Shown: positions 20,862-49,337 of the stretch, in pieces
Numbering within the stretch: position 1 is the first letter of the stretch
Layout of the letters: the number at the start of each line of letters is the position of its first letter
Source of the DNA: Chloroflexota bacterium
GTDB lineage: Bacteria > Chloroflexota > UBA11872 > UBA12225 > JAJDUF01
DNA: 64,000 nucleotides
Assembly (NCBI GenBank): GCA_965214295.1
Contig: OZ243944.1
Coordinates: 1,653,395 to 1,717,394 of the forward strand
Reading direction: 5' to 3'
Translations under genes and position numbers: made by a program
Notes under the pieces: generated by a model
Databases searched by the model: none
Told to the model about the DNA's origin: nothing
The model's input: the letters and a program-made list of their open reading frames with translations, nothing else

Positions 20862-21320
20862 AATCGTCCTGCTCCCACTGGGGAGACTTTTTTTAGCCAC
20901 AGAGAACACAGAGTAAGGGTGTCCCCCGGCGGAGCGGGACACTGGCCCCGCTAGGGTCCCTCCGCTTCGCAGGGGGACATAGATTCCCACGTGCGCGGGA
21001 ATGACGAGTGGCGAGGTGCGCCTTTCAGGAGTTGTGTCGTAGCGTGCGGCGAGGATCGCAACGATGGTCGCACGTTGATTATCGCGGGCTGTTGTGCGAT
21101 AATCTCGGCACAGGCAAATACGCTGGCCTGAATCAGCAAGCTGGGAGCCAGCACTGTAGCAATTACCACAGATGAACCGGCGGCATCTTTGTCGGTGAAA
21201 CCCAGTCCCTTGAGCGGCCCGGTGACAGGAAGGGCAGACCGGCATGGACCAAGAAGTTGTCGGTCATATGCCGCAGTGAGATTGTGTGGCCGGCAGTTGC
21301 CTAAGACGAGGCTTGGGAAT

Positions 21321-22169
21321 ATGACTATCTGTCTGGGTGTCCTATGTGCCGATGTGGGCAAGGGATCACAAGCAGTAGTTGTTGCTTCAGACCGCATGGT
21401 AACTTGGAGCGGCCTTGCCGAGTTCGAGCACGGAACCCCAAAGGTTGAAAGCGTAAGTGATCGAGTCGTAGGTTTGATTGCAGGGGATGCCCTTCGCGGT
21501 GCGGAGTTGGTCCGCAGATTGCGGATTGCTGTTCCAGACACATCCCCCTTGGTAGAGAAGGTGGCTAGTGCTGCTGGCGATGTATATGCCGAATGACGCC
21601 GGGAACAACTTGAAAGTGATTTGTTTACGCCTCGTGGTGTCTCCATGAGGGACTTTTATGCAGGATTACAGCAACAGTGGATGCCAAACATAGCACTAGC
21701 AATTGATGAGCGGGTTCAGGATTTCGACTATGGTGTAGAGTTGATGATTGCAGGTGTTGATAGTGCGGGAGCGCACCTTCACATGGTATCCAATCATGGG
21801 GGGAACTATCGTGATTATAGAAAGATCGGCTTTGCGGCAACGGGGAGTGGTGGTATACACGCTATCCAGTCCATTATTGGCTTTGGGCATGATCCTACTT
21901 GTACGCTTCACGAGACATTATTCCGGGTATATGTCTCAAAGCGCCGAGCAGAGGTCGCACCTGGAGTGGGACGGGATACCGATTTGACTGTCATCAGGGC
22001 AGGGGACGGATGCCGCATTAATCTGGACGAAGAAGCACTTGAAGCTCTTGAAAAGCTGCGTGTTGAACACCAAGGGCCAGCAGTCGAGGAAGTAGAAGCG
22101 CGAGTAGCTAAGTTGGCACTGTTCCCGGATGAGACTGATGATGGCAAACAACTTGCAGCTAACGACTAG
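21321..22169 (+). pseudogene. proteasome-beta/HslV/Anbu-like Ntn-hydrolase with in-frame TGA at 21594-21596 (aligns to conserved Trp of HslV DWRTDR)
   Basis: N-terminus MTICLGV...AVVVASDRMVT matches proteasome beta TTIVGV..GVVLAADRR; GSGG (ATGSGGIHA) motif; both halves in same frame; low-GC region. Confidence 0.5.
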
Positions 22170-23519: not shown

Positions 23520-25262
23520 TTGGTGATGGAGTTTTTGTACAGTCCTGACGTGTACTCCATGCCCGCCGTCGCATTCATGGTGGCAACCGTAGCACTCTCT
23601 CTGCTACTGCAACTGCGCCGTCGCTACCGTGATAACCTCGCGCTTTATAAGCGAGATAAGAAAGTAGCACTTGTTCTACTGGTGCAAATGCACCGTTACG
23701 ATGTGCTGCTGGTCGGGTTGCTATGCCTGGCCATCCTGGTGTATAGCACGGGTAACCTCTCGCTACAGCCGGCCTACCCTTATGGTGATGGAATACAAAA
23801 CTTGGAGCTGGGAATCCGACTGGCGCAGGAGGGGCGCTACAGTATCTGGGACGTCACCGGGTTTCACGAGCGCGAGCCGTTCGTGCCATTCCTGATTGCA
23901 GCCATCGACCTGACGCGGCGAGTACTCGGGCACGAGCCGGTGCTGCTGGTTTGTGTAGATCCCGACGTGGCAGCCGCACCAGCGTGTCCCCCGACATATC
24001 TGACGTATGCGCCGTACAAAGTCCTGAACGTCGTGTTCCTGCTACTTGCCGGGGTGAGTGCTTTTTTTATTGTGCTGTGGTTCACCAGGGTAAAGTTGCT
24101 GGCGTACGCCGCGTTGCTCCTCACGACGCAGAGCAGGGAGCTATTGTCAAGCGCTGACAGTTTCTACACCGAAGTACCCGCCGCCGGCCTCATGGTGGCA
24201 ACCAGCGTATTTGCTCTGCTGACGATAACGCGGCGCCGCCCGATATACAGCGTGTTGCTGGGGTTGGTGCTCGCCGCGCTCGTGTTGACCAAGACCATTT
24301 TCGCCTATCTGTGGATCTTTATCATCATCACCTTCGTGTTGTTGGACCTATCGAAGAAAAAGCTCGGCCGGTCAACCTTGACTCTCGTCGGGTTTTTCCT
24401 TGTCGCGTACTTCATCCCCCTCGGCGCTTGGATGACGCGCAACTACGCAACGTCCGGAGACTTTTCATTGGTGGCTGAACGACCAGCGGCCGAAGAGTGG
24501 GGTATACGCGCCGCGTATAACGAGATGCGCGACGATGAGTTTTTCGCGGGCTTCTTGTTGTTCTTTCCCGTAACACGTTCGAATATTAACAACTTCTTCC
24601 CAAAAGAATCCTACGAGCGTCTCACGTCGTTTTATTTCGAAGATCTAGGCCGACGGGGTAAATTCTATAGTAGAGAAAGAGAGTTGAATGACGGAAGAGA
24701 CAAGCATATGGAGAAGGTGCCCCCAGGAATGACGTTCAGGCAGTGGAGTATAGACACGCTCGCAAGCGAAATGAGGGCAGAAATGCTTGCCGACCCCTGG
24801 CAGCATTTCAGGGTATCACTGCTGTTGGGCTGGCGCGGTGTGTTTAGGTGTTGTTTTTTTGGGCTTGGGTATGACTTCATGCGAAGTGACCTGCTGCTCG
24901 CCGACACATGGGGATTCACAGACTGGCCATCCTGGAGTTGGAGTCCGTTCGGCCCGGTTTGGAACAGCCTCGTCAGGATCACTACGTTTCTTGCGCTCAT
25001 TGTTGTGCCGTTATGGTTCTGGTTTTCTCAGCGGCGGTTCGAGACGGTGCTCATTGTGCTGCCGGCACTCTATGCACATGGCCTGTATGCCGTGGCGTCA
25101 TCCTTCATTCCCCGCTATGGATTTCCCCTGATCCCACTGCGGATAGTGGCGGCGATGTTGCTCGTGTTCCTGTTGGTGTCCGCGCTGTACCGGCTAGGGA
25201 TGAAGTCGGTTGAGTTCGTTACCGAATACCGGAAGAGATGCGGCAAAAGTAGATGGCAGTAG
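23520..25262 (+). CDS. polytopic membrane protein, possibly GT-C-fold glycosyltransferase (ArnT/PMT-like)
   Basis: many TM helices; ~50% GC vs ~67% flanks; function call from general architecture only. Confidence 0.55.
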   Translation: MVMEFLYSPDVYSMPAVAFMVATVALSLLLQLRRRYRDNLALYKRDKKVALVLLVQMHRYDVLLVGLLCLAILVYSTGNLSLQPAYPYGDGIQNLELGIRLAQEGRYSIWDVTGFHEREPFVPFLIAAIDLTRRVLGHEPVLLVCVDPDVAAAPACPPTYLTYAPYKVLNVVFLLLAGVSAFFIVLWFTRVKLLAYAALLLTTQSRELLSSADSFYTEVPAAGLMVATSVFALLTITRRRPIYSVLLGLVLAALVLTKTIFAYLWIFIIITFVLLDLSKKKLGRSTLTLVGFFLVAYFIPLGAWMTRNYATSGDFSLVAERPAAEEWGIRAAYNEMRDDEFFAGFLLFFPVTRSNINNFFPKESYERLTSFYFEDLGRRGKFYSRERELNDGRDKHMEKVPPGMTFRQWSIDTLASEMRAEMLADPWQHFRVSLLLGWRGVFRCCFFGLGYDFMRSDLLLADTWGFTDWPSWSWSPFGPVWNSLVRITTFLALIVVPLWFWFSQRRFETVLIVLPALYAHGLYAVASSFIPRYGFPLIPLRIVAAMLLVFLLVSALYRLGMKSVEFVTEYRKRCGKSRWQ

Positions 25263-34980: not shown

Positions 34981-35167
34981 GGGTGCTGCACCTCCTGGGC
35001 TACTCGACGTGGCTGCTTCCGTTATGCTGGGATACTATCTGATGGGTTCGACCGTCCCCGGCTCTCTCCTATGGAGGGAAGGGGGGTCTTGAAGGCGACC
35101 GGCAGCCCTTTCCCTTCACGGAGGGGGTAAAGGGAGGCGTGTGCGCCGGGCACCAAGGAGCTTGCAA

Positions 35168-36304
35168 GTGAAGATCACCGCTGTCAAGACGTTCCTCGTG
35201 GATGCGTCGCCGCCGGGTGGCTGGAGTGGTGGTGGGCGCAACTGGCTGTTCGTCAAGGTCGAGACCGACGCCGGCATCTACGGACTTGGCGAGGCGAGCG
35301 GCTGGCCGCGCGTTGTCCGGACGGCTATCCAGGACCTCACCCCCGTCGTGGTCGGCGAGGACCCGGGCCGGATCGAGTATCTCTGGCAGAAGATGCTGCT
35401 GGCCATGATGGGGCACGGGATGACCGGCGTCGTGGGCGGCGGGGCGATGACCGGCATCGAGATTGCTCTCTGGGACATCCTGGGCAAGAAGCTCGGCGTA
35501 CCGGTATGTGACTTGCTGGGCGGTCGCCTGCGGGACCGCGTCCGCGTCTATGCCCACGCCAGCACCCCGGAGCGCGCACAGGAGCTAATCGAGCGCGGCT
35601 ATACCTGCTTCAAGTGCGGCAGCTTGCAGCACCCGGTCAGGACTGTCAAGACTCTGCGGGAGGCCGTCGGCGACGATATTGACTTGTGCATTGACGTGCA
35701 TGGGCCGCCCTGGTTTAGTGTGCCCGATGCCATCCGGGTTGGGCAGGCGCTCGAAGAGTACGGGCTGCTGTTCTACGAAGACCCCGTGCCGCCCGAAAAT
35801 ATCGAGTCGCTGGCAAAGGTGGCACGAGCCATAGACGTGCCCCTTGCCTGCGGCGAGCGGTCCAGCACCATCTACGGCTTTCGCGAGCTGATCGAGCGCG
35901 ACATCGTGGACGTGATCCAGCCCGATACCGGCCGCGCCGGGGGCCTGTTGCAGATGAAGAAGGTCGCCGCTCAGGCCGAGGCACACCACATCATGGTCGC
36001 TCCCCACGACGGGTCGCTCGGACCGATTGCCGAGGCGGCAGCGGTGCAGCTGATGGCCACGCTGCCCAACTTTCTCATCTTGGAGCACATGGCCGACGAC
36101 GTACCCTGGCGGTACGAGCTAATCGAAGAGTTTCCGCTGCACGACAGCCACTTCAGCGTGCCCGACCGCCCCGGCCTCGGCATCGAGCTAAACGAAGCGG
36201 TCGCCCGCGCCCATCCCGGCGGGTCGAACGTCAACCGACCGGGGCCGGCAGTACGCACCTACGTCGAATCACGCCTGAGCCGCCGCCGGCTGACGCAGCC
36301 GTAG
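35168..36304 (+). CDS. enolase-superfamily (MR/MLE) sugar-acid dehydratase
   Basis: GTG start (MKITAVKTFLV) with RBS AAGGAG; IALWDILGK; DxH/E/D metal ligands. Confidence 0.8.
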   Translation: MKITAVKTFLVDASPPGGWSGGGRNWLFVKVETDAGIYGLGEASGWPRVVRTAIQDLTPVVVGEDPGRIEYLWQKMLLAMMGHGMTGVVGGGAMTGIEIALWDILGKKLGVPVCDLLGGRLRDRVRVYAHASTPERAQELIERGYTCFKCGSLQHPVRTVKTLREAVGDDIDLCIDVHGPPWFSVPDAIRVGQALEEYGLLFYEDPVPPENIESLAKVARAIDVPLACGERSSTIYGFRELIERDIVDVIQPDTGRAGGLLQMKKVAAQAEAHHIMVAPHDGSLGPIAEAAAVQLMATLPNFLILEHMADDVPWRYELIEEFPLHDSHFSVPDRPGLGIELNEAVARAHPGGSNVNRPGPAVRTYVESRLSRRRLTQP

Positions 36305-36406
36305 CCCCTTGGTAGCCGGAGACGACACAGGCTATCATCTGGGGTATTGGGAAGAGGTTCGCCTATCTGGACGCACTCCGCCTCGCGCGGTGGAGAGGCA
36401 AGCGAG

Positions 36407-37588
36407 ATGACTGAGGCATTTGTCACGCCGGAAATCATCACGTGGGCACGGGGCCGCTTCAAGTGGGACCACGAGATGCTCGCAAAACGAGTGGGCGTCA
36501 ACGTGCGTACCGTCATTGCCTGGGAAACTGGCAAGAAGCGCCCCACTCAGCGGCAAGCGACCAAGCTCGCCGCCAAACTTCACGTTCCCTTGGGGTATCT
36601 GTGGCTCAACGCGCCACCAGCACTTGAGGTACCGATACCTGATCTTCGCACTGTTAGCGGTGTCGGGCCCCAGCCACCCAGCGCAAACTTTATAGATGTT
36701 CTGTACGATGCACGTAGAAAACAGCAATGGTATCGAGAATACTTGCAGAGCGAGGGGGCACGACCACTCCCATTTGTGGGCAGATTTCCTCTGAAATATG
36801 ATCCTAGATTCGGTGATGTTGCTGATGACATGAGAGCTACTATAGGCGTTGATAATGCACGACAGAAATCCAAGAAACACCTTCAATTTCTCGGTTTTCT
36901 TGCGGAAAATGCAGATAAAATAGGGATACTTGTATTGCGGAGTGACAAGGTGGGGAATAACACACGCCGAAAAATAAATGTTGATGAATTTCGTGGCTTT
37001 GCGTTCGTTGATGACTTAGCACCACTGGTTTTCATCAACAGTGCCGATACTCCTGCTGCCAGGATATTCACACTGGCGCATGAGCTTGCTCACGTGTGGA
37101 TCGGAGAAAGCGGAATATCTAACCCAACCGCAATCGGCATGGTTTTGCAGAAGGATAATCGCATCAATCGCTTCTGTAATCAGGTTGCGGCCGAGCTTCT
37201 TATACCAGCTGCGAGTTTTGTGGAAAAATGGCAACAAGGTGGAAATGTCGAAGAAAACATAACGGCGATGAGCGAATTCTATCACGTGAGCCGCACTGCG
37301 GTCCTGATTCGAGCCTATGAGCATGAGCTTCTGCCTGATGAAATCTATCGTCTTAAGCTTGAGCGACTGCAGCAATGGGAAATTCAGGAGCCTCAAGGTG
37401 GTGGCGGGAGTTTCTGGAACAACTTCCTTGCCAGCAATAGCCACACCTTGGTTCACGCGGTGCTTACCTCTGCCGCGGAGGGCCGCATTTCCGAGCGTGA
37501 TGCGGCAACCTTGCTAAGTCTCACCAATCGTAAGACGCTGAGATCGGCACAAGAGAAATTCATTCGTAGGCAGGTAGTCGGTGCCTGA
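36407..37588 (+). CDS. XRE-type HTH fused to ImmA/IrrE-family (DUF955) zinc metallopeptidase
   Basis: HTH (LAKRVGVNVRTVIAWETGKK), HEXXH (AHELAHVW); RBS GGAGAGG; ~50% GC. Confidence 0.75.
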   Translation: MTEAFVTPEIITWARGRFKWDHEMLAKRVGVNVRTVIAWETGKKRPTQRQATKLAAKLHVPLGYLWLNAPPALEVPIPDLRTVSGVGPQPPSANFIDVLYDARRKQQWYREYLQSEGARPLPFVGRFPLKYDPRFGDVADDMRATIGVDNARQKSKKHLQFLGFLAENADKIGILVLRSDKVGNNTRRKINVDEFRGFAFVDDLAPLVFINSADTPAARIFTLAHELAHVWIGESGISNPTAIGMVLQKDNRINRFCNQVAAELLIPAASFVEKWQQGGNVEENITAMSEFYHVSRTAVLIRAYEHELLPDEIYRLKLERLQQWEIQEPQGGGGSFWNNFLASNSHTLVHAVLTSAAEGRISERDAATLLSLTNRKTLRSAQEKFIRRQVVGA

Positions 37589-38063
37589 CTACTGGCTTGA
37601 CTCGGATACTTTGATTCGGCCGTATCGGGAGCTTACCTTTGATTGGCTGCCGAGCCTCTGGACGATCCTGCGGGAGAAGGGTGTGGAGGGAATCATTGCG
37701 AGTAGTTTGTATGTCTATGAAGAACTCAAGGATGGTGATGACGCTCTAGCGAAATGGGCTGAGGAGTGCCGGGACTTTGGGTTGTGGGTGCCGGCCGACG
37801 AGAGTGTCCAGCATGCCTACTCCACAATTGCAAACTATGTAGTGCAGCATCGGACTTATTCTCCGGAGCATGTGGCTATGTTCCTGGGCAAGGCTGATGC
37901 ATGGATCATCGCGCATGCTCTGGCCGGTGGTGGCAGAGTGGTCACGTTCGAGGTGTCTCAGCCGCTATCAGCGAGGCCCAAAATCCCGGATGTCGCTGGC
38001 AATTTCGGGGTGGACTGCTTAACGCTACATGAAATGCTCAGGGAAATGGAGGTAAGAATCTAA
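37581..38063 (+). CDS. DUF4411 PIN-like domain protein (putative nuclease/toxin partner of ImmA/IrrE-HTH gene)
   Basis: GTG start overlapping upstream stop by 8 bp (GTGCCTGA); family assignment from memory of conserved ImmA-DUF4411 pairing. Confidence 0.6.
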   Translation: MPDYWLDSDTLIRPYRELTFDWLPSLWTILREKGVEGIIASSLYVYEELKDGDDALAKWAEECRDFGLWVPADESVQHAYSTIANYVVQHRTYSPEHVAMFLGKADAWIIAHALAGGGRVVTFEVSQPLSARPKIPDVAGNFGVDCLTLHEMLREMEVRI

Positions 38064-38118
38064 GGTGCTTCCGTGTTGCGGCGTATCCATGCGCCGTCTT
38101 CCTCGGCCGCTGGCACGG

Positions 38119-39261
38119 TTAGCTTACGAGCCGCTGTCGCACCAGGTCCATGTCCAGCTCTATTCCGAGGCCCGGTCCGGTCGGGGGAATGATGTAGCCG
38201 TTCTCGAAGACGAGCGGCTCCTTGAATATCGTCCGGTGAATTGGGCCTTGGTTCGCTTCCTGGATCAAGAAGTTCGGCGAGCACGTATCGAGCTGAATGG
38301 CCGCCGCGGCGGCAATCGGACCACAGGCCATATGCGGCGCGATCATCGCGTAATGGGCTTCTGCGATGCTGGCGATCTTCTTCGACTCCAGGATGCCACC
38401 GCACTGCCCCACGTCGAGCTGGATGATCTGAGCCGCCTGCTTCTCGATCAGCTCGGCAAACTCGTATTTCGTCACGAGACGCTCACCGCTGGCGATGGGA
38501 ATGCTGGTGTGGGCGGCAACCCTCGCCATCTCGTCCACGTTCTCCGGGGGTACCGGCTCTTCGAACCAGAAGGGTTGGTACTTCTCCAGAGCTTGAGCCG
38601 CACGGATGGCGCTATAGGTAGTAAGCTGTCCATGGGTGCCGATGCCGACCTCCAGCCGGTCGCCGACGGCATTGCGGATGCTCTCGAAGATGCGCTCGGC
38701 GTAGGTGATCTCCGCCAACGAGATGTCGCGTGGCAGGGGATACAAGGGCCTGAACGGGTCGAGCTTGCAGGCGGAATTGCCCTGCTCCAGTAGCTCTATG
38801 GCGATTTCTCCGGCCCGCGCCGGGTTTTCGTCAAAGCCGTCCCTTGGCATATAGGCGTAGGCGCGTAGCCTGTCATGATATTGGCCGCCGAGCAGGTTGT
38901 AGATCGGTTGGTTGACCGCTTTGCCGATGATGTCCCAGCACGCCATTTCAATCGCACTCAGCGCCGGCGTGGTGTGCAGACTTGGATGGCGAAAGTCGTG
39001 CCTGGAGCCATACGCGCGCTGCCAGATTTTCTCTATCTGGAAGGGGTTTTCGCCGATCACGAACTGACGACCGATCTCTTCGATAAGACTGATATGGGCT
39101 TTCAGCCCAGCGAGGTGGTCGGAAAAGACATTGCCGGTCACGCGCTCGCCGAGGCCGACGACCCCCTCGTCGGTGACGACTTCGAGGAAGAGCAGGTACT
39201 TGCCGCCGCGATGGGGCGGGATGTTTTCGACCACCATGGTCTTGATGTCAACGATCTTCAC
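38119..39261 (-). CDS. enolase-superfamily (MR/MLE) sugar-acid dehydratase
   Basis: GTG start MKIVDIKTMVV with RBS GGAGGAGGG; MACWDIIGK; metal ligand motifs. Confidence 0.8.
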   Translation of the reverse strand: MKIVDIKTMVVENIPPHRGGKYLLFLEVVTDEGVVGLGERVTGNVFSDHLAGLKAHISLIEEIGRQFVIGENPFQIEKIWQRAYGSRHDFRHPSLHTTPALSAIEMACWDIIGKAVNQPIYNLLGGQYHDRLRAYAYMPRDGFDENPARAGEIAIELLEQGNSACKLDPFRPLYPLPRDISLAEITYAERIFESIRNAVGDRLEVGIGTHGQLTTYSAIRAAQALEKYQPFWFEEPVPPENVDEMARVAAHTSIPIASGERLVTKYEFAELIEKQAAQIIQLDVGQCGGILESKKIASIAEAHYAMIAPHMACGPIAAAAAIQLDTCSPNFLIQEANQGPIHRTIFKEPLVFENGYIIPPTGPGLGIELDMDLVRQRLVS

Positions 39262-39408
39262 CTCGCCCTCCTCCAACCCCGGCCCGTCATTCCCTCGTTC
39301 GCGGGAATCTACCGTGCAGCCGCGTGCCCCGGTTGCCCTGGATTCCCGCTTGCGCGAGAGTGACGGATGAGGGGCCGGGAACGACGGGGCTGCTTGTAGT
39401 CATCCATG

Positions 39409-41504: not shown

Positions 41505-42305
41505 ATGAACACTGCGGAGCAGCAAGCGCACTTCCGCACCTTCGGCTTCGTGGTCCAGCGTCAGGCGTTCACGCCCGACGAGATGCGGGCAATTACGCAC
41601 GAGTTCGACGCTCTGATGACCGAGCTGCGCGAGGGCCAGCCCTTTATGGGGGAGAGCAGTGAAAATCGCGCTCCGTTCGTCGAGCTACGCCCGGCACTGT
41701 CCCGGCTGGCGGTGGACGACCGCATCCATGGCACCGTCGAGAAGTTGCTCGGCCCGGACTTCCTCTGGGCCAGCTCCGAGGGCAACATCACCGTCGGCGA
41801 CCATCTCTGGCATCCCGATAGGCCGGGCGACGAGGAAGAGATTTCGTACCTCCGCCTCAAGACGATGATTTACCTGGACGAAACGACCCGAGATGCCGGT
41901 GCCATCCGCCTGATCCCCGGCTCGCATCGTCTGCCGCTGCACGAGGAGATCGAGCGTGAGCAGCGCCACCAGCACGGGCCAACGTTGGCGCCGTTCGGTG
42001 TGCCCGGCGCCGAGGTGCCCTGCTTCGCCTACGAGTCCCGACCCGGCGACGTGCTCTTCTTCAACCAAAGCCTCTGGCATGGGGTCTTCCACGGGTGGGT
42101 CGGGCGCCGCTATATCGCGCTGAAGTACGCCGCCATGCCGCAAACGGACAAGCAGATTGGCTCGCTCGACTACTATTCCCGCGGCACTATCTTCCAGCCG
42201 GTCGATTCGTTCGCGCAGAGCGACAATCCCCGCATTCGGCGCATGGTGGACCCGCTACCGGCGCTAGGACGCAAGCAGGTCCCGCCCTTTGTCCCCTTCC
42301 GCTGA
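41505..42305 (+). CDS. PhyH-family Fe(II)/2OG oxygenase
   Basis: LWHPD (HxD), IPGSHR, LWHGVF. Confidence 0.75.
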   Translation: MNTAEQQAHFRTFGFVVQRQAFTPDEMRAITHEFDALMTELREGQPFMGESSENRAPFVELRPALSRLAVDDRIHGTVEKLLGPDFLWASSEGNITVGDHLWHPDRPGDEEEISYLRLKTMIYLDETTRDAGAIRLIPGSHRLPLHEEIEREQRHQHGPTLAPFGVPGAEVPCFAYESRPGDVLFFNQSLWHGVFHGWVGRRYIALKYAAMPQTDKQIGSLDYYSRGTIFQPVDSFAQSDNPRIRRMVDPLPALGRKQVPPFVPFR

Positions 42306-43943
42306 ACAGGCGAGATGGGTCTCTATCCATTCCGTAACGGTGTCTCGCCAGGCGACCGGGGCAAAAAGCCTCAAGCTAAGGTACGACCGTCGCTCATCCA
42401 TTCCCAGTGCCGCCACTGCTGCATTGTGACCGATAACCAGGGGTACTAGGGTCGTATACCGAACGTAATGTACAGACATGTTTGGAAACTCTATGGCCGA
42501 CGTCAGCTGCTCCAAGAAGGGCCGAGAAAATAGATTCCGGTTCTCTTTCCTGGACACCACAAAATAGCTTGCGAGTGGATTCATTGCTAGTTGTAGACAC
42601 TCCCAAGAAACATCCCCTGTTGCTCTAGTTAGGCAATATGTGAAAGCCGGTCCGCTGGTATCCCCAAGTCCGATCTCAATCGCGTCAGGCCGTTTGGCAT
42701 TCACCACTTCCCAGTTTCTATGACCGTCTATTCTTCGCTGTCCCCGCCGCGACCTCGACTGCCAGTATGTTCCGAAGATGTAGCAAGCCCCAAAAACCTC
42801 TTCTAGCAGTGACCACCCCACACGACGCATCTGGTACAACAGCCGGTCAAACCGATACTCTCGCTCATCGTCCTTCATGAGTCCCAAAAGCCTGATCTCG
42901 AAGCCACTGATCTGATCCAACACCTGAGTTGGCACTTGCGCCCGATCCGCCTCTTCCGGGAACCAACTGAGTTCAGCAATGTCCCGGGGAGTCAGAACCG
43001 GGTAGGCTACAGCCCGTATCGGTAGGTCGGGGGCATGCCGCCAGAATACTTGCTTGTCATGCTGCGCTCGCCAGAGATGGCGGCTCTGTGTACTCCCCCC
43101 ATCCAGTTCATGGCGAACGGGCTTGGGGATCATGCCCCGGCCATCCCAAGTAGCGATATGCCACGTTGTACTCGCCACCGGGAGCACGGGACCATCTGGG
43201 TCGGGGCCAATGAGATGCTGTTCAATCCAGGCCGCGATCACAGGACGCAGTTCAGCCGGCATAAGAATCTGCAGACCACCGCTACTAGCTGAGACGAGTG
43301 CCATGCCATGGCGCACCACCAGAGCAAGCAGGGCCGGGTAGTTGACCTTGACTTTCCTGCGGCGTGTCTCCACATGCAGAGTATTAATGACCTTGGAGAG
43401 AAATGCTTGAGAGATGATTTGGGTATCCGGCGTGGTAGTTGAGATGAAAGGGGACATAATGGCATAGTGATCTTCAACAGAGTCCAGGTATCCTCCGATA
43501 TTCACTCTCCGCAAACCAACTAGAAAGCTGTAGCGTGGCTCCGTATCAACCTCACGCTCTACGACCCCCTTCTCTCTGAGCTTGCTTTCCTCCCAAAATA
43601 GTCCTTTATATGATCGGATTCTATTCTTCATTTCGATATTACTTATACGGAGAAGATGATTTGATTGAAACACATCACTGAGAATACTCTGTGTAATCAT
43701 CCTCTGCAGTTTGGAAACACGATCAAGGAGATGACGATAACGATCATCCCGGCCCTCGAAGTCAATAGCAATACCGCTAACCGGTGGGGGTGTCCCAGTC
43801 GGCAATTGTGCTGTATTGGCACTTTCCGGATGCCAATGCAGGTCGGGTATGTCCCCTAGCCCTACTTCTGGATACTCCGTCACATGGAACGTGATATCGT
43901 ACATAGCTCCCGGCGTCCCTTCCGTGGTGAGAACAGTAAGCAA
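42264..43943 (-). CDS. hypothetical protein (559 aa), no recognisable domain; low-GC islet
   Basis: long ORF with protein-like composition, ~50% GC; start may be M14 (MYDITFHV); overlaps 3' end of PhyH gene convergently. Confidence 0.5.
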   Translation of the reverse strand: MLTVLTTEGTPGAMYDITFHVTEYPEVGLGDIPDLHWHPESANTAQLPTGTPPPVSGIAIDFEGRDDRYRHLLDRVSKLQRMITQSILSDVFQSNHLLRISNIEMKNRIRSYKGLFWEESKLREKGVVEREVDTEPRYSFLVGLRRVNIGGYLDSVEDHYAIMSPFISTTTPDTQIISQAFLSKVINTLHVETRRRKVKVNYPALLALVVRHGMALVSASSGGLQILMPAELRPVIAAWIEQHLIGPDPDGPVLPVASTTWHIATWDGRGMIPKPVRHELDGGSTQSRHLWRAQHDKQVFWRHAPDLPIRAVAYPVLTPRDIAELSWFPEEADRAQVPTQVLDQISGFEIRLLGLMKDDEREYRFDRLLYQMRRVGWSLLEEVFGACYIFGTYWQSRSRRGQRRIDGHRNWEVVNAKRPDAIEIGLGDTSGPAFTYCLTRATGDVSWECLQLAMNPLASYFVVSRKENRNLFSRPFLEQLTSAIEFPNMSVHYVRYTTLVPLVIGHNAAVAALGMDERRSYLSLRLFAPVAWRDTVTEWIETHLACSAEGDKGRDLLAS

Positions 43944-45384: not shown

Positions 45385-46785
45385 ATGTTATTGACGATTA
45401 CCACAACCTACCAACCTGCCACCGACCTGGGCTTTCTTCTGGCCAAGAATCCGGCCCGGTGTCAATCGTTCTCCTTGTCCTTCGGTCAGGCCCATGTCTT
45501 TTATCCGGTAGCGCACGACCGGGTCTGCACGGCGGCACTGCTCGTTGACCTCGATCCGATCCGTCTCGTGCGGCGGCGACGAAGCCGTCAGAGCCAGGAC
45601 CGCACGCTCGGCCAGTACGTGAACGACCGGCCGTATGTGGCCTCATCTTTTCTGAGCGTGGCGTTGGCCCGCGTGTACAAGTCGGCATTGGGCGGCCAGA
45701 GTAAAGAGCGACCGGCACTTGCGGCTACGGCTATTCCGCTCGCGGTGCAGATCACTGCGGTCCAATGTCGCGATGGTGAGCGCATGCTGCGGGCGCTCTT
45801 CGAGCCGCTCGGCTACAACGTCAGCGCCGAGCGCCAGCCGCTCGATGTAGCCTTTCCGCAGTGGGGAGAGAGCACGTATTGGTCACTCGCTCTCGATGCC
45901 ACCCACCGCCTGCATGACCTCCTCACACACCTGTATGTCTTGCTGCCGGTACTGGACGACGACAAGCATTACTGGGTTGGGAGGGACGAGCTGGAGAAGC
46001 TGCTGGCAAAAGGAGCGGGCTGGCTCTCGACTCACCCGGAACGTGACTTGATCGTTGACCGCTACTTGCGGTACCGGCGCCTGCTCACCCGCGAGGCCCT
46101 CGCCAGACTGGTGGTCGACGACGACATCAATCCCGATGCTACCGAGGAAGCACAGGCCCGCGAAGAGGCGGTGTTGGAGGACAGAATCAGCCTCAGTGAG
46201 CAGCGCATGATGGCCGTGCTGGCTGTGCTCAGGGGAGCCGGCGCTACACGGGTGATCGACCTGGGCTGTGGGGAGGGGAAGTTTCTCCAGGTGCTACTCA
46301 AGAATACGGACTATGAGCAAATCACCGGTATGGATGTGTCCTCCCGGGCCCTAGCGTTAGCAGCGAGACGTTTGCGGCTCGACCGGTTACCGGCGAGACA
46401 ACGCGCGCGCATCGAGCTTTTTCAGGGAGCGCTCACCTACCGGGATCAACGACTCACCGGTTACGATGCCGCCTGTGCGCTGGAGGTTATCGAGCACATC
46501 GAACCATCGCGGCTGGGCGCTTTCGAGCGGGTGCTCTTCGAGTTTACACGGCCGTCAACCGTAGTGATTACCACGCCGAACACAGAGTACAACGTGCGAT
46601 TCGAGGACCTTGCCGCCGGTCGGTTCCGCCACCGCGATCATCGCTTCGAGTGGACCCGCGCGGAGTTCTCACGCTGGGCGCAGCGGGTGGCAGATCGCTC
46701 CGGCTATGCGTTTCGGTTGCTGCCTATCGGTCCAGTTGACCCGGCCGTAGGTCCTCCGACCCAGATGGCGGTATTCTCACGATGA
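45385..46785 (+). CDS. hen1: bacterial Hen1 RNA 3'-terminal 2'-O-methyltransferase
   Basis: N-terminal Pnkp-interacting region and C-terminal SAM MTase (VIDLGCGEGKFL); overlaps pnkp start by 4 bp (ATGA). Confidence 0.8.
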   Translation: MLLTITTTYQPATDLGFLLAKNPARCQSFSLSFGQAHVFYPVAHDRVCTAALLVDLDPIRLVRRRRSRQSQDRTLGQYVNDRPYVASSFLSVALARVYKSALGGQSKERPALAATAIPLAVQITAVQCRDGERMLRALFEPLGYNVSAERQPLDVAFPQWGESTYWSLALDATHRLHDLLTHLYVLLPVLDDDKHYWVGRDELEKLLAKGAGWLSTHPERDLIVDRYLRYRRLLTREALARLVVDDDINPDATEEAQAREEAVLEDRISLSEQRMMAVLAVLRGAGATRVIDLGCGEGKFLQVLLKNTDYEQITGMDVSSRALALAARRLRLDRLPARQRARIELFQGALTYRDQRLTGYDAACALEVIEHIEPSRLGAFERVLFEFTRPSTVVITTPNTEYNVRFEDLAAGRFRHRDHRFEWTRAEFSRWAQRVADRSGYAFRLLPIGPVDPAVGPPTQMAVFSR

Positions 46786-49337
46786 ATATCACTGTCCCGG
46801 CACTGTCGTTGGTGGTCTTGATCGGCCCTTCGGGCAGCGGCAAGTCTACGTTTGCCAGCAAGCATTTCAAGCCCACGGAAGTGCTGTCATCCGACTATTG
46901 CCGCGGCCTCGTGTCCGATGACGAAAACGATCAAGCTGCGACGAAAGATGCCTTCGACGTACTCCACTTCATCGCTCGCAAACGCCTCGCGGCTGGCCGG
47001 CTCACCGTGGTAGATGCTACCAACGTTCAGGCGGAGGCACGCAAGCCGCTGGTGGCGCTGGCACGAGAAGCCCACGTGCTTCCTGTGGCCCTCGTCTTCA
47101 ACCTGCCGGCCAAGCTGTGCCAGGAGCGCAACCGCGACCGGCCCAACCGCGACTTCGGTCCCCACGTGGTTCGGCAGCACAGTCAGCAGCTGAGACGCTC
47201 GCTCCGCGGCCTGCGGCGGGAGGGTTTTCGACACACCGCTATCCTGAGCACGCCGGATATGGTCGCCGCCGCCCGTATCGTGCGGCAGCCTTTGTGGGTC
47301 GACCGGCGGCAGGAGCATGGTCCGTTCGACATCATTGGCGATGTCCACGGCTGCTTCGATGAGCTTGTCGCGTTGCTGGAGCAGCTGGGCTATGACATCG
47401 GCGGCCCGACTGGTCGGCCCACGGTGCGCCACCCGGACGGTAGGCGTGCGGTGTTTGTTGGCGATCTCGTGGATCGAGGCCCTAACTCGCCTGGGGTGCT
47501 CCGGTTGGTCATGGCCATGGTGGCCGACGCGGCAGCGCTGTGTGTGCCGGGCAATCACGACATCAAGCTCATGCGAAAACTCAAGGGGCGCGATGTTCGG
47601 ATCACGCATGGTCTCGCGGAAACGCTGACGCAGCTGGCCGCAGAGCCGGATGACTTCCGACGGAGCGTGATGGAGTTTCTCGACGGGCTGGTGAGCCATT
47701 ACGTGCTCGACGATGGGCGGTTGGTCGTTGCTCATGCTGGCCTGAAGGAGGAGCTGCAAGGGCGCGCCTCGGGCCAGGTACGGGAGTTTGCGCTCTATGG
47801 CGAAACCACTGGCGAGACCGATGAGTTCGGATTGCCGGTTCGTCACAACTGGGCTGACGACTACCGAGGATCGGCCACTGTCGTCTACGGACACACACCG
47901 GTACCAGCCGCAGAGTGGCGCAACCGGACTGTCTGTATTGACACCGGTTGCGTGTTTGGTGGGAAGCTGACGGCTTTACGCTATCCGGAAAAGGAGCTGG
48001 TGCATGTCCAGGCGCGCCGCACCTACTATGACCCGGTGCGTCCTCTACTACCACCAAGCCAAGAGGCGCCGGCTGTATCGCGCCGTCCCCACGATGACAT
48101 ACTGGATATCAACGATGTCTTGGGTAAGCGTGTCATTACCACACGCATTCACCGCAACATCACTATTCGCGAGGAGAATGCTTTGGCGGCTCTCGAGGTC
48201 ATGAGCCGATTTGCGGTGGATCCGCGGTGGCTTATCTATCTACCACCGACTATGGCTCCTCCGGATACCTGCAAAGATGGCGAGTACCTTGAGCATCCAC
48301 GCGACGCCTTCGCTTACTTCCGAGGGCAGGGAGTGGCTCAGGTTATCTGCGAGGAAAAGCACATGGGCTCACGGGCTATCGTCGTTCTCTGCCGCGATCA
48401 GGAGGCGGCCCAGCGCCGATTCCAGGCGGACAATGGCCGGCTCGGTCTCGTCTATACGCGCACGGGACGCCCCTTCTTTTCCGATACCAAGATGGAGGGC
48501 ACGCTGCTCGCGCGTATGTCTGCCGCCTTGGCGCAGGTGGACTTCTGGGATCGCTTTGAGACGGACTGGCTCTGCCTCGATGCCGAGCTGCTGCCGTGGT
48601 CGGCGAAGGCTCAGGGGTTGCTACAGGATCAGTACGCAGCTACGGCGGCCGCAGCCAGCACTACGCTCGATGCCGCCGTCTCCTTGCTGAAGAAGGCCGC
48701 GGGCCGCGAAGAAGAGCGCGCGGCGTTGCTCACTCGCTACCGGAAGCGCCAGGAAATGGCGAGCCGGTTTCGCGCGGCCTATCGTCGCTACTGCTGGCCG
48801 GTCAGGAGTGTGGCCGACCTGAAGCTGGCGCCCTTTCACCTGCTGGCGACGGAAGGGCGGACATACACGGACAAGGACCACACCTGGCACATGGAGATGG
48901 TCGCGGCCCTCTGCCAGGCTGATGGAGCGATCTTCGCTGCTACTCCCTACAAAACTGTCGACCTGACCGACCCTGACAGCGAGACAAGAGGGATCAGCTG
49001 GTGGAAAGAGCTGACTGCCGCTGGCGGCGAGGGGATCGTTGTGAAGCCGCTCCGGTGGATCGTGAGAGGGAGTCGAGGCCTCGTTCAGCCGGCCATGAAG
49101 TGCCGGGGACGCGAGTACTTGCGATTGATCTATGGCCCGGAGTATACGGCTCCTGAGCACCTGGAGCGGCTCCGGTCCCGCAAGGTCTCCGTGAAGCGCT
49201 CGTTAGCCCTGCGAGAGTTTGCGCTGGGTGTCGAGGCGCTCCATCGGTTTACGGAGGAAGAGCCGCTGTATCGGGTGCATGAATGCATCTTCGGCGTGCT
49301 GGCCCTGGAGAGCGAGCCGGTCGACCCTAGGCTCTAG
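46782..49337 (+). CDS. pnkp: polynucleotide kinase-phosphatase (kinase / metallophosphoesterase / ligase-like domains)
   Basis: P-loop GPSGSGKST; calcineurin-type GDVHGC..GDLVDRGP..GNHD; C-terminal adenylyltransferase-like EEKHMGSR. Confidence 0.85.
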   Translation: MNITVPALSLVVLIGPSGSGKSTFASKHFKPTEVLSSDYCRGLVSDDENDQAATKDAFDVLHFIARKRLAAGRLTVVDATNVQAEARKPLVALAREAHVLPVALVFNLPAKLCQERNRDRPNRDFGPHVVRQHSQQLRRSLRGLRREGFRHTAILSTPDMVAAARIVRQPLWVDRRQEHGPFDIIGDVHGCFDELVALLEQLGYDIGGPTGRPTVRHPDGRRAVFVGDLVDRGPNSPGVLRLVMAMVADAAALCVPGNHDIKLMRKLKGRDVRITHGLAETLTQLAAEPDDFRRSVMEFLDGLVSHYVLDDGRLVVAHAGLKEELQGRASGQVREFALYGETTGETDEFGLPVRHNWADDYRGSATVVYGHTPVPAAEWRNRTVCIDTGCVFGGKLTALRYPEKELVHVQARRTYYDPVRPLLPPSQEAPAVSRRPHDDILDINDVLGKRVITTRIHRNITIREENALAALEVMSRFAVDPRWLIYLPPTMAPPDTCKDGEYLEHPRDAFAYFRGQGVAQVICEEKHMGSRAIVVLCRDQEAAQRRFQADNGRLGLVYTRTGRPFFSDTKMEGTLLARMSAALAQVDFWDRFETDWLCLDAELLPWSAKAQGLLQDQYAATAAAASTTLDAAVSLLKKAAGREEERAALLTRYRKRQEMASRFRAAYRRYCWPVRSVADLKLAPFHLLATEGRTYTDKDHTWHMEMVAALCQADGAIFAATPYKTVDLTDPDSETRGISWWKELTAAGGEGIVVKPLRWIVRGSRGLVQPAMKCRGREYLRLIYGPEYTAPEHLERLRSRKVSVKRSLALREFALGVEALHRFTEEEPLYRVHECIFGVLALESEPVDPRL

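Follow-up and report, generated by a model that had tools for sequence, protein, structure and literature searches.

One way to approach the locus described here is through VapBC52 of Mycobacterium tuberculosis, a toxin-antitoxin (TA) pair formed by Rv2515c (VapB52, the antitoxin) and Rv2514c (VapC52, the toxin). A 2019 study reported toxicity of Rv2514c in M. smegmatis and its rescue by Rv2515c (PMC6504116); in 2026 the complex was solved (PDB 9VZY, 9VZZ) and dissected, with a VapB52:VapC52 stoichiometry of 1:2 (PMC13273310). In that work the N-terminal domain (NTD) of VapB52 binds the toxin dimer and its C-terminal domain (CTD) occludes the toxin active site; self-cleavage of VapB52 is triggered by single-stranded DNA (ssDNA); VapC52 cleaves tRNA; and resistance to phage D29 appears upon overexpression of VapC52, not from the native locus (PMC13273310). 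Such modules had been proposed earlier: Makarova et al. predicted an association of COG2856-Xre with PIN proteins in 2009, naming Rv2515c as a fusion example (PMC2701414), and Matelska et al. predicted a ‘three-component’ TA system of DUF4411.1 with HTH-DUF955 in 2017 (PMC5499597). Both of these are computational predictions only, and the architecture they describe, DUF4411.1 downstream of a fused DUF955 (COG2856/ImmA)-HTH gene, is identical to that of the islet considered here. The initial annotation of this DNA, which held that the pairing was predicted and never characterised, is outdated by the later papers and structures.

A second described family is that of the anti-phage RosmerTA systems (RmrA/RmrT; preprint by Millman et al. 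2022, 10.1101/2022.05.11.491447; PMC10440598), in which the antitoxin likewise consists of an HTH and an ImmA-type zinc peptidase; the ImmA antitoxin node was linked to PIN-like toxins by Ernits et al. in 2023 (PMC10440598). The RosmerTA toxins characterised differ in kind; that of phage Kita, for instance, depolarises membranes. Canonical VapBC pairs have a PIN-fold toxin with four conserved acids that belongs to PF01850, and a VapB of only ~8–13 kDa (RHH, AbrB or Phd). CapP and IrrE (PprI) are M78 proteases activated by DNA damage or ssDNA, which cleave an HTH repressor. In CapP/CapH (of CBASS) and IrrE(PprI)/DdrO (of Deinococcus) that repressor is a protein of its own, and what results is the transcription of a regulon or of the CBASS operon. 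In the ImmR/ImmA module, a separate HTH repressor and an M78 anti-repressor lie by the integrase of an ICE or prophage.

A low-GC islet between two dehydratase genes

The window (the whole 64 kb stretch of DNA analysed) carries, at 36305–38118, a two-gene islet that is very probably a TA pair of the VapBC52 type. It lies between convergent genes for MR/MLE dehydratases, identified through Pfam MR_MLE matches: one upstream (35141–36304, + strand), the other downstream (38119–39276, − strand). GFO/IDH, sulfatase and PhyH genes are also among its neighbours. The GC content of the islet is 0.531, against a mean of 0.641 (sd 0.034) for 1,814-nt segments of the 64 kb; only 0.6% of such segments are as low, and the lowest of all (0.530) starts at 36351, within the islet. 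The initial description of a low-GC two-gene islet between two MR/MLE dehydratase genes is thus upheld, and the islet is the minimum-GC 1.8 kb of the window; the islet figure given was ~50% rather than the ~53% found, and the downstream dehydratase gene, put at ~67%, measures 60%. At third codon positions (GC3) the two genes stand at 0.51 (gene A) and 0.62 (gene B) against 0.78–0.87 for the flanking genes, and because these values are so far below the flanks the islet genes are taken to be of foreign origin. No integrase, phage or conjugation gene was found within ~10 kb, no tRNA gene in the whole window and no convincing direct or inverted repeat flanking the islet.

The start of gene A had been placed at TTG 36347, but the six orthologous loci support ATG 36407: this ATG and its GGAGAGG Shine-Dalgarno sequence are unchanged in all six, and in one of the loci 4 nt are missing between the TTG and the ATG, so that ATG 36407 is taken as the true start. 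In the 102-nt gap upstream of the gene, a consensus scan located a promoter-like site, TTGGTA-18 nt-TATCAT (36309..36338, + strand). Alone this is weak, since 1.2 such sites are expected by chance for the one found, and both promoter and terminator scans are at chance level; its CTTGGT and GACACAGG(C/T)TATC blocks are unchanged in the six orthologous loci, the second hexamer being otherwise variable (TATCGT in L001, TATCAC in L007). An invariant stem in the 5′-UTR (CUCCGCC...GGUGGAG) overlaps the Shine-Dalgarno sequence, and its stability does not exceed that of shuffled sequence (z = −0.55). The two genes themselves overlap by 8 nt, GTGCCTGA (37581..37588, + strand), the GTG start of B lying within the last codons and stop of A as first annotated; the overlap implies translational coupling, on the evidence of the sequence.

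The antitoxin-type and toxin-type proteins

Gene A (36407, ATG, to 37588, + strand) encodes a protein of 393 aa that is a VapB52 (Rv2515c) homologue by Pfam, PADLOC and PDB profile comparisons. The reading of A as an XRE-HTH fused to an ImmA/IrrE HEXXH peptidase was correct: Pfam finds HTH_3 (E 2e-9) and Peptidase_M78 (E 3e-17), and the protein has an N-terminal XRE-HTH, an M78 (ImmA/IrrE) metallopeptidase in the middle and a four-helix C-terminal domain. PADLOC matches it to RmrA (1.2e-24, best of 16 RmrA models) and capP (5.5e-15), whereas NCBIfam offers only a sub-threshold match to ‘spr1629 family repressor/antitoxin’. Against PDB 9VZY_A the match is full length, at 1.5e-21 and 80 bits with the single sequence and 2.8e-38 with a profile. 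The AF2 model (pLDDT 87.5) has five NTD helices, a four-stranded peptidase core bearing the HEXXH, and a four-helix CTD. Its best fold matches are CapP 7T5T at the top, then IrrE 3DTI and the PprI-ssDNA complex 8SLN, with PrpR also present; CapP, IrrE, PprI and PrpR are likewise the structural neighbours reported for VapB52 (PMC13273310).

The XRE-type HTH domain (Pfam and AF2) comprises aa 1–70 and five helices (36407..36616, + strand) and is the counterpart of the toxin-binding NTD of VapB52. Its fold matches are P22 c2 and C-protein controllers, and its profile matches the Csp231I C protein, which has also been reported as a neighbour of the VapB52 NTD (PMC13273310). In the linker from the NTD to the middle domain, alignment to 9VZY_A places D79-L80-R81 (36641..36649, + strand) opposite D-F75-R76, the ‘FR’ self-cleavage motif of VapB52; the correspondence is one of sequence motif only. 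Among the 118 protein-database homologues that have the region, the D and R are invariant with L, F or Y (once C) between them, and of 77 homologues from genome loci only one or two lack this pattern. The C-terminal four-helix domain, aa 331–393 (37397..37585, + strand), has AF2 helices at 336–344, 346–357, 363–369 and 375–390, and the profile alignment to 9VZY_A reaches profile position 382, within this domain. Its counterpart in VapB52 is the CTD that covers the active site of the toxin (PMC13273310).

Gene B (37581, GTG, to 38063, + strand) encodes a PIN-like nuclease homologous to VapC52 (Rv2514c), by Pfam, PDB profile and AF2. The assignment as a 160-aa DUF4411 PIN-like protein, for which a profile check had been suggested, is strongly confirmed: the match to Pfam DUF4411 (PF14367) has an E of 6e-34 and covers the whole profile, and the AF2 model (pLDDT 96.7) has a PIN fold whose top fold matches are VapC PIN toxins. 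Against PDB 9VZY_D and 9VZZ_A the match is 5e-8 and 36 bits with the single sequence and 1.3e-25 with a profile, and searches of PDB sequences brought up no solved protein besides VapC52. B retains all four acids predicted to be catalytic (D7, E48, D106 and E124); across 67 homologues D106 and E124 never vary, and the other two are at least 90% conserved. The PIN family PF01850 is reached at 16.6 bits, below its cutoff of 23.6. PADLOC gives no match for B at E ≤ 0.1 and no RmrT model, NCBIfam has no model for it, and an exact-sequence look-up of the protein returned no record. As the Foldseek PDB library is older than the 9VZY release, VapBC52 itself was out of reach of the structural searches, and both proteins are linked to it through a newer PDB sequence file, searched with single sequences and with profiles; judged by these searches, A and B are full-length homologues of VapB52 and VapC52 of M. 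tuberculosis.

The islet thus shares with VapBC52 the order of antitoxin then toxin, with the antitoxin gene directly upstream on the same strand and abutting or overlapping; a three-domain antitoxin of ~390–415 aa (XRE-HTH NTD, HEXXH M78 domain, four-helix CTD); a D-(F/L)-R in the linker of the NTD, at the site of VapB52 self-cleavage; and a single-domain DUF4411 PIN toxin of ~150–170 aa, with the acidic residues kept in B. There are differences: the islet proteins are only distantly similar in sequence; Leu in A stands where VapB52 has Phe ahead of the conserved Arg; Ser238 replaces the regulatory Cys229, and Asn254 the zinc ligand Glu245; and the host is a member of the Chloroflexota rather than an actinobacterium. 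From RosmerTA the islet differs in that the best RmrA match spans only the peptidase half of A (aa 191–373) and B matches no RmrT model. The peptidase-plus-HTH-motif core of A shares its fold with CapP and IrrE, but in A the HTH substrate would be fused to the peptidase and the output would be a bound PIN toxin; no capH, other CBASS gene or ddrO was found near the islet. Canonical VapBC is resembled in the PIN fold and four acids of B, whose nearest solved folds are VapC; it differs in that its small VapB contrasts with the 393-aa protease fusion, and its PF01850 toxin with a DUF4411 protein sub-threshold for that family. Unlike ImmR/ImmA, A is a fusion, and no integrase accompanies it.

We consider it very likely that the islet pair is a VapBC52-class type II TA module, acquired horizontally and now fixed in the chromosome; the class is also described as the ‘ImmA/Rosmer zone’ with a PIN toxin. 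The toxin-antitoxin or abortive-infection logic suggested for the pair in the initial annotation is supported by the profiles, the predicted structures and the full-length homology to the validated VapBC52.

Pairing, distribution and persistence

The pairing of A with B is near-obligate across phyla. Of 80 DUF4411 loci, 79 have a full-length homologue of A directly upstream and on the same strand; in the lone exception a contig end cuts it off. The commonest A–B spacing among the fetched loci is −8, the same 8-nt overlap. Hosts include Chloroflexota, Acidobacteriota, Nitrospinota, Bipolaricaulota, Desulfobacterota, Veillonella, Planctomycetia and one Nitrosopumilaceae archaeon. The genome-contig profile was built from 17 closer sequences; there were 538 genome matches and 1,761 representative-library matches overall, and flanks were sampled as two ORFs on each side at 37 loci. 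Here and in most of these 37, the neighbours are metabolic genes rather than defence islands, and no recurrent metabolic partner emerged across ~80 unrelated genomic neighbourhoods. The expectation that the pair would turn up in mobile contexts elsewhere proved sound: plasmid copies adjoin RES-Xre, VapBC and GNAT-DUF1778 TA modules and tra/mob genes. PADLOC recognises A, as RmrA and capP, but not B, and DISARM/BREX-like genes adjoin only ~2 of the 37 sampled loci. With no PADLOC model for B, current defence finders would not call a complete system.

The pair is fixed at a single locus in seven related Chloroflexota contigs, and all seven syntenic relatives found carry it. Ratios of dN to dS were taken from five syntenic contigs, with L006 left out; a sixth contig has nonsense codons. 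They are 0.22–0.26 for A, 0.16 for its peptidase core (the lowest among the segments of A) and 0.10–0.18 for B. In dS both genes resemble the flanking genes; the dN of A (0.10–0.15) exceeds that of the neighbours (0.02–0.07). Across the five contigs compared, A and B are under purifying selection, and a decaying pseudogene pair is rejected, the ratios being well below 1. An empty site, with the dehydratase genes adjacent and the islet missing, was sought by scanning metagenome contigs with the upstream MR_MLE gene: none appeared among 80 loci at 53–85% identity, nor did any of these have the TA pair or a convergent second dehydratase, and the sequence downstream in the closest (L085, 85%) is unrelated. 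The relatives found thus give neither an age for the insertion nor evidence of polymorphism at the site.

A possible mechanism and its trigger

Under the preferred reading, as a VapBC52-class module, B would be a metal-dependent endoribonuclease with the DUF4411 PIN fold, its substrate probably tRNA. A promoter of their own would drive A and B as one transcript, with the 8-nt overlap coupling their translation. By analogy with VapB52:VapC52, the HTH-bearing NTD of A would clamp the outside of the toxin dimer while its helical CTD would block the nuclease active site, leaving the middle M78 domain to act as sensor and switch within the same protein. Once a signal arrives (for the M. tuberculosis homologue, ssDNA of phage replication or DNA damage), A would cut its own linker at D-(L/F)-R; the cut would free active toxin, and the resulting arrest of translation would amount to abortive infection or growth arrest. 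For the islet pair we infer toxicity, neutralisation, the nature of the trigger, self-cleavage and the RNA target from the analogy.

The trigger is the least secure step of this scheme, given two residues of A, Ser238 and Asn254. The zinc and catalytic motif, H225-E226-L-A-H229 (HELAH, aa 225–229, read from the sequence; 37079..37093, + strand), is intact, and HEXXH is invariant across A homologues, one truncated member excepted. Set against the zinc site of VapB52 (H216, H220, E245), A therefore has the HEXXH but lacks the glutamate as third ligand: by alignment, the position of VapB52 E245 and IrrE E113 is taken by Asn254 (37166..37168, + strand). At this column all 21 members of the window's clade have Asn, and all 99 other homologues Asp or Glu; among genome loci, Asn is found only in the window and L001–L007. 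The same clade has gained acidic residues at 249 and 250 (E249/D250), one helical turn before Asn254. Nor does A have the auto-inhibitory cysteine switch of VapB52: alignment to 9VZY_A puts Ser238 (37118..37120, + strand) where VapB52 has C229, the ‘cysteine switch’ residue that it shares with CapP. Serine occupies this column in 119 of 120 protein-database homologues and in 72 of 77 from genome loci, with Cys in only 2. A switch that is absent from nearly all sampled members cannot be the general activation mechanism of the family, and the alignments suggest that it may be peculiar to VapB52 rather than family-defining. With Ser238 and Asn254 in place, the published activation by ssDNA and a Cys switch does not carry over unchanged, and the peptidase may have lost strength.

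Two accounts of these residues keep the TA module and differ over its peptidase. It is possible, though on balance unlikely, that the window's clade represents a remodelled sensor, with a relocated metal ligand and an activation logic unlike the ssDNA/Cys-switch model. The basis for this is the combination of Ser238, Asn254 and the new E249/D250 pair, yet with a peptidase core that is the most constrained part of A; the difference might lie in the trigger, in metal affinity, or in a switch gated by metal availability. An account that we find improbable supposes instead that the metal site is degenerate and the peptidase no longer a switch, A serving as stoichiometric antitoxin and autorepressor only; toxin would be released by host proteases or transcriptional shut-off, and the module kept mainly as an addictive selfish element. 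The clade-wide loss of the acidic third ligand (Asn in 21/21, against Asp or Glu in 99/99) would fit a dead peptidase, as would fixation at a single chromosomal site among metabolic genes and the faster evolution of A than of its neighbours by dN. But the HEXXH is intact, the core has the lowest dN/dS in A (0.16), and D-L-R is kept in every clade member that has the region; moreover, the gained E249/D250 could substitute for the lost ligand, and Asn is itself able to coordinate zinc.

Other accounts dispense with the TA module altogether, and we give them very little credence. A might regulate transcription of the sugar-acid catabolic genes around it, as an HTH with a degenerate DUF955 like PrpR of M. 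tuberculosis and RamB of Corynebacterium, with the DUF4411 protein an accessory rather than a toxin. The pair does sit between two MR_MLE dehydratase genes within a sugar-metabolism block, PrpR structures are among the fold matches of A, and its third zinc ligand is altered; but the two genes are always together, in ~80 unrelated neighbourhoods and on plasmids, with no recurrent metabolic partner, their base composition is foreign to the operon, and the full-length match to VapB52 is far better than that to PrpR. On these grounds of pairing, composition and homology a PrpR/RamB-like regulator of a metabolic operon is rejected. Low GC and membership of the ImmA/IrrE family might equally suggest the remnant of an ImmR/ImmA-like immunity module from a decayed prophage or ICE, the more so as COG2856-Xre pairs are abundant in prophages (PMC2701414). 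This too is a most improbable origin: integrase, phage and conjugation genes are absent for ~10 kb, as are tRNA genes from the window and repeats from the islet's flanks; the HTH and the peptidase belong to one protein, whose gene is strictly coupled to that of a PIN protein; and purifying selection acts across the lineage on two genes that are both intact. With no mobile-element genes nearby and an intact fused pair, the decayed immunity module is rejected.

Implications

The significance of these results is mostly one of annotation: the name VapBC52-type TA module can be given to a gene pair from an uncultured lineage of the Chloroflexota. The family to which it would belong is nearly always found as a pair, in a wide range of bacterial phyla as well as at least one archaeon, and at the sampled loci it is mostly a solitary insert among metabolic genes, outside defence islands; the defence models of PADLOC 2.0 miss the toxin partner. 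In one clade the third zinc ligand has been replaced while the peptidase core is still under selection, which is relevant to ImmA/IrrE-type switches. If this clade does carry a remodelled sensor, the subfamily would show one TA scaffold re-tuned toward different signals.

The islet and its genes

The islet (36305-38118) holds two same-strand genes between two convergent genes for MR/MLE-family enzymes, each with Pfam MR_MLE_N and MR_MLE_C domains (35141-36304, plus strand; 38119-39276, minus strand); ORF list, sequence and Pfam agree on this layout between two dehydratase genes, as the initial annotation had it. Gene A (36407-37588, plus strand, ATG start) encodes 393 aa, with an XRE-type HTH_3 domain (aa 14-65, E 2e-9) and an ImmA/IrrE-type Peptidase_M78 domain (aa 170-303, E 3e-17) whose HEXXH motif is HELAH (aa 225-229). 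Gene B (37581-38063, plus strand, GTG start) encodes 160 aa, matched end to end by DUF4411 (PF14367, E 6e-34); its Pfam PIN match is sub-threshold. The identity and architecture of the pair are established directly by this analysis. They bear out the domain assignments made earlier by eye, and the gene A stop does overlap the gene B start: GTGCCTGA.

GC content of the islet is 53.1%, against a mean of 64.1% (sd 3.4) for 1,814-nt windows along the 64 kb; only 0.6% of such windows are as low, and the lowest (53.0%, start 36351) lies within the islet. Low GC was therefore rightly called, at about 53% rather than the 50% proposed; the 67% assigned to both flanking dehydratases does not hold for the downstream gene, which is at 60%.

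The ATG at 36407 is taken as the start of gene A, because it and the Shine-Dalgarno sequence GGAGAGG do not vary across six orthologous loci, and because a 4-nt deletion in one orthologous locus disrupts the frame from the upstream TTG. The 5′ sequence, containing the promoter region, is well conserved among orthologues; a promoter consensus scan upstream of gene A is at chance level taken alone. An inverted repeat in the 5′ UTR (CTCCGCC-TCGCGC-GGTGGAG, 36377-36396) overlaps the Shine-Dalgarno sequence. Five of six orthologous loci have the repeat unchanged, the other (L006) having one loop substitution, and nearby intergenic bases vary. Folded as RNA, it gains no stability over shuffled sequence (z = -0.55); any function it has would therefore more probably be that of an operator bound by the HTH domain than that of an RNA structure.

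Homology to VapBC52

One way to place the pair is through solved homologues. In sequence and profile searches of the 2026 PDB sequence file, a single entry, 9VZY, is matched by both proteins. Gene A aligns over aa 8-368 with chain A (‘HTH cro/C1-type domain-containing protein’, E 1.5e-21), and gene B with chain D and 9VZZ_A (‘DUF4411 family protein’, E 5e-8); no other solved protein in that file matches gene B by sequence. The family profiles extend these alignments: 2.8e-38 for gene A (profile positions 6-382, chain residues 2-386) and 1.3e-25 for gene B (positions 4-157, residues 12-159). Both entries are of the Mycobacterium tuberculosis VapBC52 complex, antitoxin Rv2515c (VapB52) and toxin Rv2514c (VapC52) [Nucleic Acids Res. 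2026 (PMC13273310)].

Predicted structures were compared by Foldseek with a library running to April 2026, 9VZY not being among its entries. The gene B model (mean pLDDT 96.7) has an alpha/beta/alpha PIN fold, matched best among solved folds by archaeal and bacterial VapC toxins. The gene A model (pLDDT 87.5) opens with five N-terminal helices and, after a linker of lower confidence (about aa 81-90), continues as a four-stranded sheet that leads into the HEXXH helix; another four helices make up the C-terminal part. Its best matches are CapP (7T5T), IrrE (3DTI), PprI with ssDNA (8SLN) and M. tuberculosis PrpR, with P22 c2 and C-protein controllers for the N-terminal domain; these are the structural neighbours listed for VapB52 (PMC13273310).

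According to the same paper (PMC13273310), VapB52 and VapC52 assemble at 1:2: the five-helix HTH N-terminal domain of VapB52 contacts the outside of the VapC52 dimer; an IrrE/CapP-like HEXXH peptidase, which contains an HTH motif of its own, forms the middle domain; the four-helix C-terminal domain occludes the VapC52 active site. ssDNA induces HEXXH-dependent self-cleavage, which removes the N-terminal domain near a conserved ‘FR’ motif, and the authors propose that Cys229, a ‘cysteine switch’, keeps the zinc site auto-inhibited. VapC52 cuts tRNA in anticodon or variable loops, and M. smegmatis that overexpresses it resists phage D29. The TASmania study found Rv2514c toxic in M. smegmatis, with rescue by Rv2515c (PMC6504116). 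COG2856-Xre fusions coupled to PIN toxins had been predicted by Makarova et al. in 2009, with Rv2515c as example (PMC2701414); Matelska et al. (2017) described DUF4411.1 genes 3′ of fused DUF955-HTH genes as a potential three-component toxin-antitoxin (TA) system (PMC5499597); and Ernits et al. (2023) placed ImmA-type antitoxins, some with PIN-like toxins, in an ‘ImmA/Rosmer zone’ of the TA network (PMC10440598).

Judged by homology, then, the islet pair is of a known kind, already characterized by experiment in VapBC52. The TA reading offered earlier is supported, both proteins being homologous to that system; the description of the pairing as experimentally uncharacterized is overtaken by these tests, structures and predictions.

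Active-site, metal-site and linker residues

Among 67 aligned gene B homologues, D106 and E124 never vary, and conservation is 90% or more at D7 and E48; therefore, the predicted nuclease site is intact. D7 corresponds in the alignment to the position altered in the published VapC52 variant D6A.

Gene A was compared with 120 protein-database and 77 genome-locus homologues. HEXXH is invariant, one truncated member aside. D79-L80-R81 aligns with D-F75-R76 of VapB52; D79 and R81 hardly ever vary, and the residue they enclose is L, F or Y (once C). Two positions differ from VapB52. In the cysteine-switch column gene A has Ser238, as do 119/120 protein-database and 72/77 genome-locus homologues; only two have Cys. 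In the third zinc-ligand column (VapB52 E245, IrrE E113) gene A has Asn254. Asn is found here in all 21 proteins of at least 72% identity, plus the window and the seven related contigs syntenic with it (L001-L007), whereas the residue is Asp or Glu in each of the 99 homologues of lower identity; by this alignment Asn254 is specific to the window's clade. That clade is also acidic at 249 (E in 20/21) and 250 (D/E in 21/21), where other members mostly have Gln. The Asn254 site may have a relocated ligand, be weakened or be dead.

Distribution and genomic context

The DUF4411 toxin family has 1,761 relatives in a representative library (E <= 1e-3) and 538 matches among GTDB species representatives. 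Most are from Chloroflexota/Dehalococcoidia; the window's own uncultured lineage has genomes of 4.2-4.4 Mb. Other hosts include Acidobacteriota, Nitrospinota, Bipolaricaulota, Desulfobacterota, Planctomycetia, Longimicrobiales, Veillonella and a Nitrosopumilaceae archaeon. A full-length gene A homologue lies directly 5′ of the toxin gene, on the same strand, in 79 of 80 fetched loci, the sole exception being truncated by a contig end; spacing is usually -20 to +10 nt, most commonly -8. Several copies look degraded, with the toxin ORF in two pieces or the antitoxin ORF partial (L012, L065, L078, L023, L063, L064), which suggests that individual copies decay often despite family-wide conservation; in some of them, L064 for one, the contig may simply stop short.

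At 37 non-syntenic loci, the scan covered the closest two ORFs in either direction. The great majority of these neighbours belong to metabolism or housekeeping (Amidohydro_2, luciferase-like, TPP enzymes, GNAT); IS1595-type matches occur twice, SRAP twice and RtcB once. Helicase and methylase neighbours resembling DISARM/BREX occur at about two of the 37, a weak association with defense islands. Mobile contexts are represented too: DUF4411 relatives occur on 16 plasmids (six conjugative, four mobilizable, six non-mobilizable) and on two uncultured phage contigs. On three plasmids inspected, the ImmA/IrrE-DUF4411 pair adjoins RES-Xre, VapBC or GNAT-DUF1778 TA modules, an integrase, or relaxase/T4SS genes. 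The initial annotation had staked its reading on the DUF4411 assignment and on mobile or defense contexts in other genomes; DUF4411 is strongly supported and the pair does occur on plasmids, with only a weak link to defense islands in the loci sampled. One conjugative plasmid, Sphingomonas pCADAB1 (NC_022235.1, 1064-4489), carries tandem Xre/MbcA-RES, AbrB-VapC and ImmA/IrrE-DUF4411 modules, a compact ‘TA island’ with T4SS genes alongside.

History at the locus

The same two dehydratase genes enclose the pair in L001-L007. Protein identity to the window is 93-96% for the MR_MLE flanks, 87-93% for the outer sulfatase and GFO genes, 75-81% for A and 86-89% for B. In pairwise comparison with the window, excluding L006 for its nonsense codons, dS is 0.41-0.68 for A, 0.35-0.51 for B and 0.26-0.55 for the flanks; this similarity argues for one insertion followed by vertical co-inheritance. 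For dN/dS the ranges are 0.22-0.26 (A), 0.10-0.18 (B) and 0.04-0.17 (neighbours), and within gene A the ratio is lowest in the peptidase core (aa 173-275; 0.16). The values for A and B contradict a reading of the pair as a decaying relic.

GC3 is 0.51 for A and 0.62 for B, against 0.78-0.87 for the flanks. Along gene A it runs from 0.73 (HTH) through 0.31 (aa 93-172) and 0.47 (peptidase core) to 0.62 (C-terminal domain), and dS is also uneven, at 0.33-0.81 by segment; the sensor part might be of mosaic or recombinant origin, or amelioration might be uneven. No empty site between the dehydratase genes was found among the relatives searched, nor flanking repeats around the islet, nor a tRNA gene in the window, nor an integrase near the islet.

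Two contigs depart from the pattern. L006 (JAJDUF010000017.1) has one in-frame stop each in the A, B and downstream MR_MLE orthologues, by single-base changes (TGG->TGA, TGG->TAG, GAG->TAG); either errors of assembly or sequencing in this MAG or true pseudogenization could explain these. In L007 (OY759972.1, ~5998-6000) the toxin start is GGG instead of GTG; translation of this toxin may be poor or may begin at another site.

Other features of the window

About 7.3 kb separate the putative tRNase toxin from a bacterial RNA-repair pair further downstream, which is likewise conserved in L001, L002 and L004: Hen1 (45385-46785, plus strand; Hen1_L 3.5e-110 and a methyltransferase domain) and Pnkp (46782-49337, plus strand; kinase, phosphatase and PNKP_ligase domains, the last 1e-180). 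Its closeness to a PIN toxin may be coincidence; at the other sampled loci, the comparable case is the single RtcB neighbour in 37. A 559-aa ORF with no Pfam match (42264-43943, minus strand) forms a low-GC patch (45-55%) among PhyH genes. It looks like a presence/absence-polymorphic insertion, because L004 has a 548-aa ORF, also without Pfam match, at the equivalent position and L001 and L002 have none. Low-GC stretches at 20951-22169 and 23520-25262 (~53.5% per 1 kb) hold ORFs of 231, 182 and 580 aa with no Pfam matches.

Proposed mechanism and alternatives

The pair is probably, with good assurance, a functional TA module of the VapBC52 type; its toxicity, neutralization, trigger and target would be those of the M. 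tuberculosis homologue. That is, A and B would be co-transcribed from their own promoter region and coupled in translation; A would neutralize the B dimer through its N- and C-terminal domains; upon a signal, the M78 domain would cleave the D-L-R linker and the N-terminal domain would be lost; freed B would then cut tRNA, with growth arrest or aborted phage infection as the outcome. That the switch works as published for VapB52, through self-cleavage induced by nucleic acid, is a tentative proposal, at slightly under even chances.

A peptidase that no longer works as a switch would account for Asn254, but it is an unlikely reading given the strongly constrained peptidase core and the retained HEXXH and D-L-R motifs. 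It is highly improbable that A is a local metabolic regulator of the PrpR/RamB type, as the pair sits in many unrelated neighbourhoods and has a foreign base composition. Equally slight is the chance of a decayed ImmR/ImmA immunity module: HTH and peptidase are fused, the PIN partner is strict and element genes are absent.

In the VapBC52-type scheme, the trigger step deserves the most caution, since the family lacks the cysteine switch and the clade the acidic third ligand. It is here, too, that the alignments add something new to the published system: a cysteine switch apparently missing family-wide, and a metal site that appears to have been remodelled in the window's clade only.
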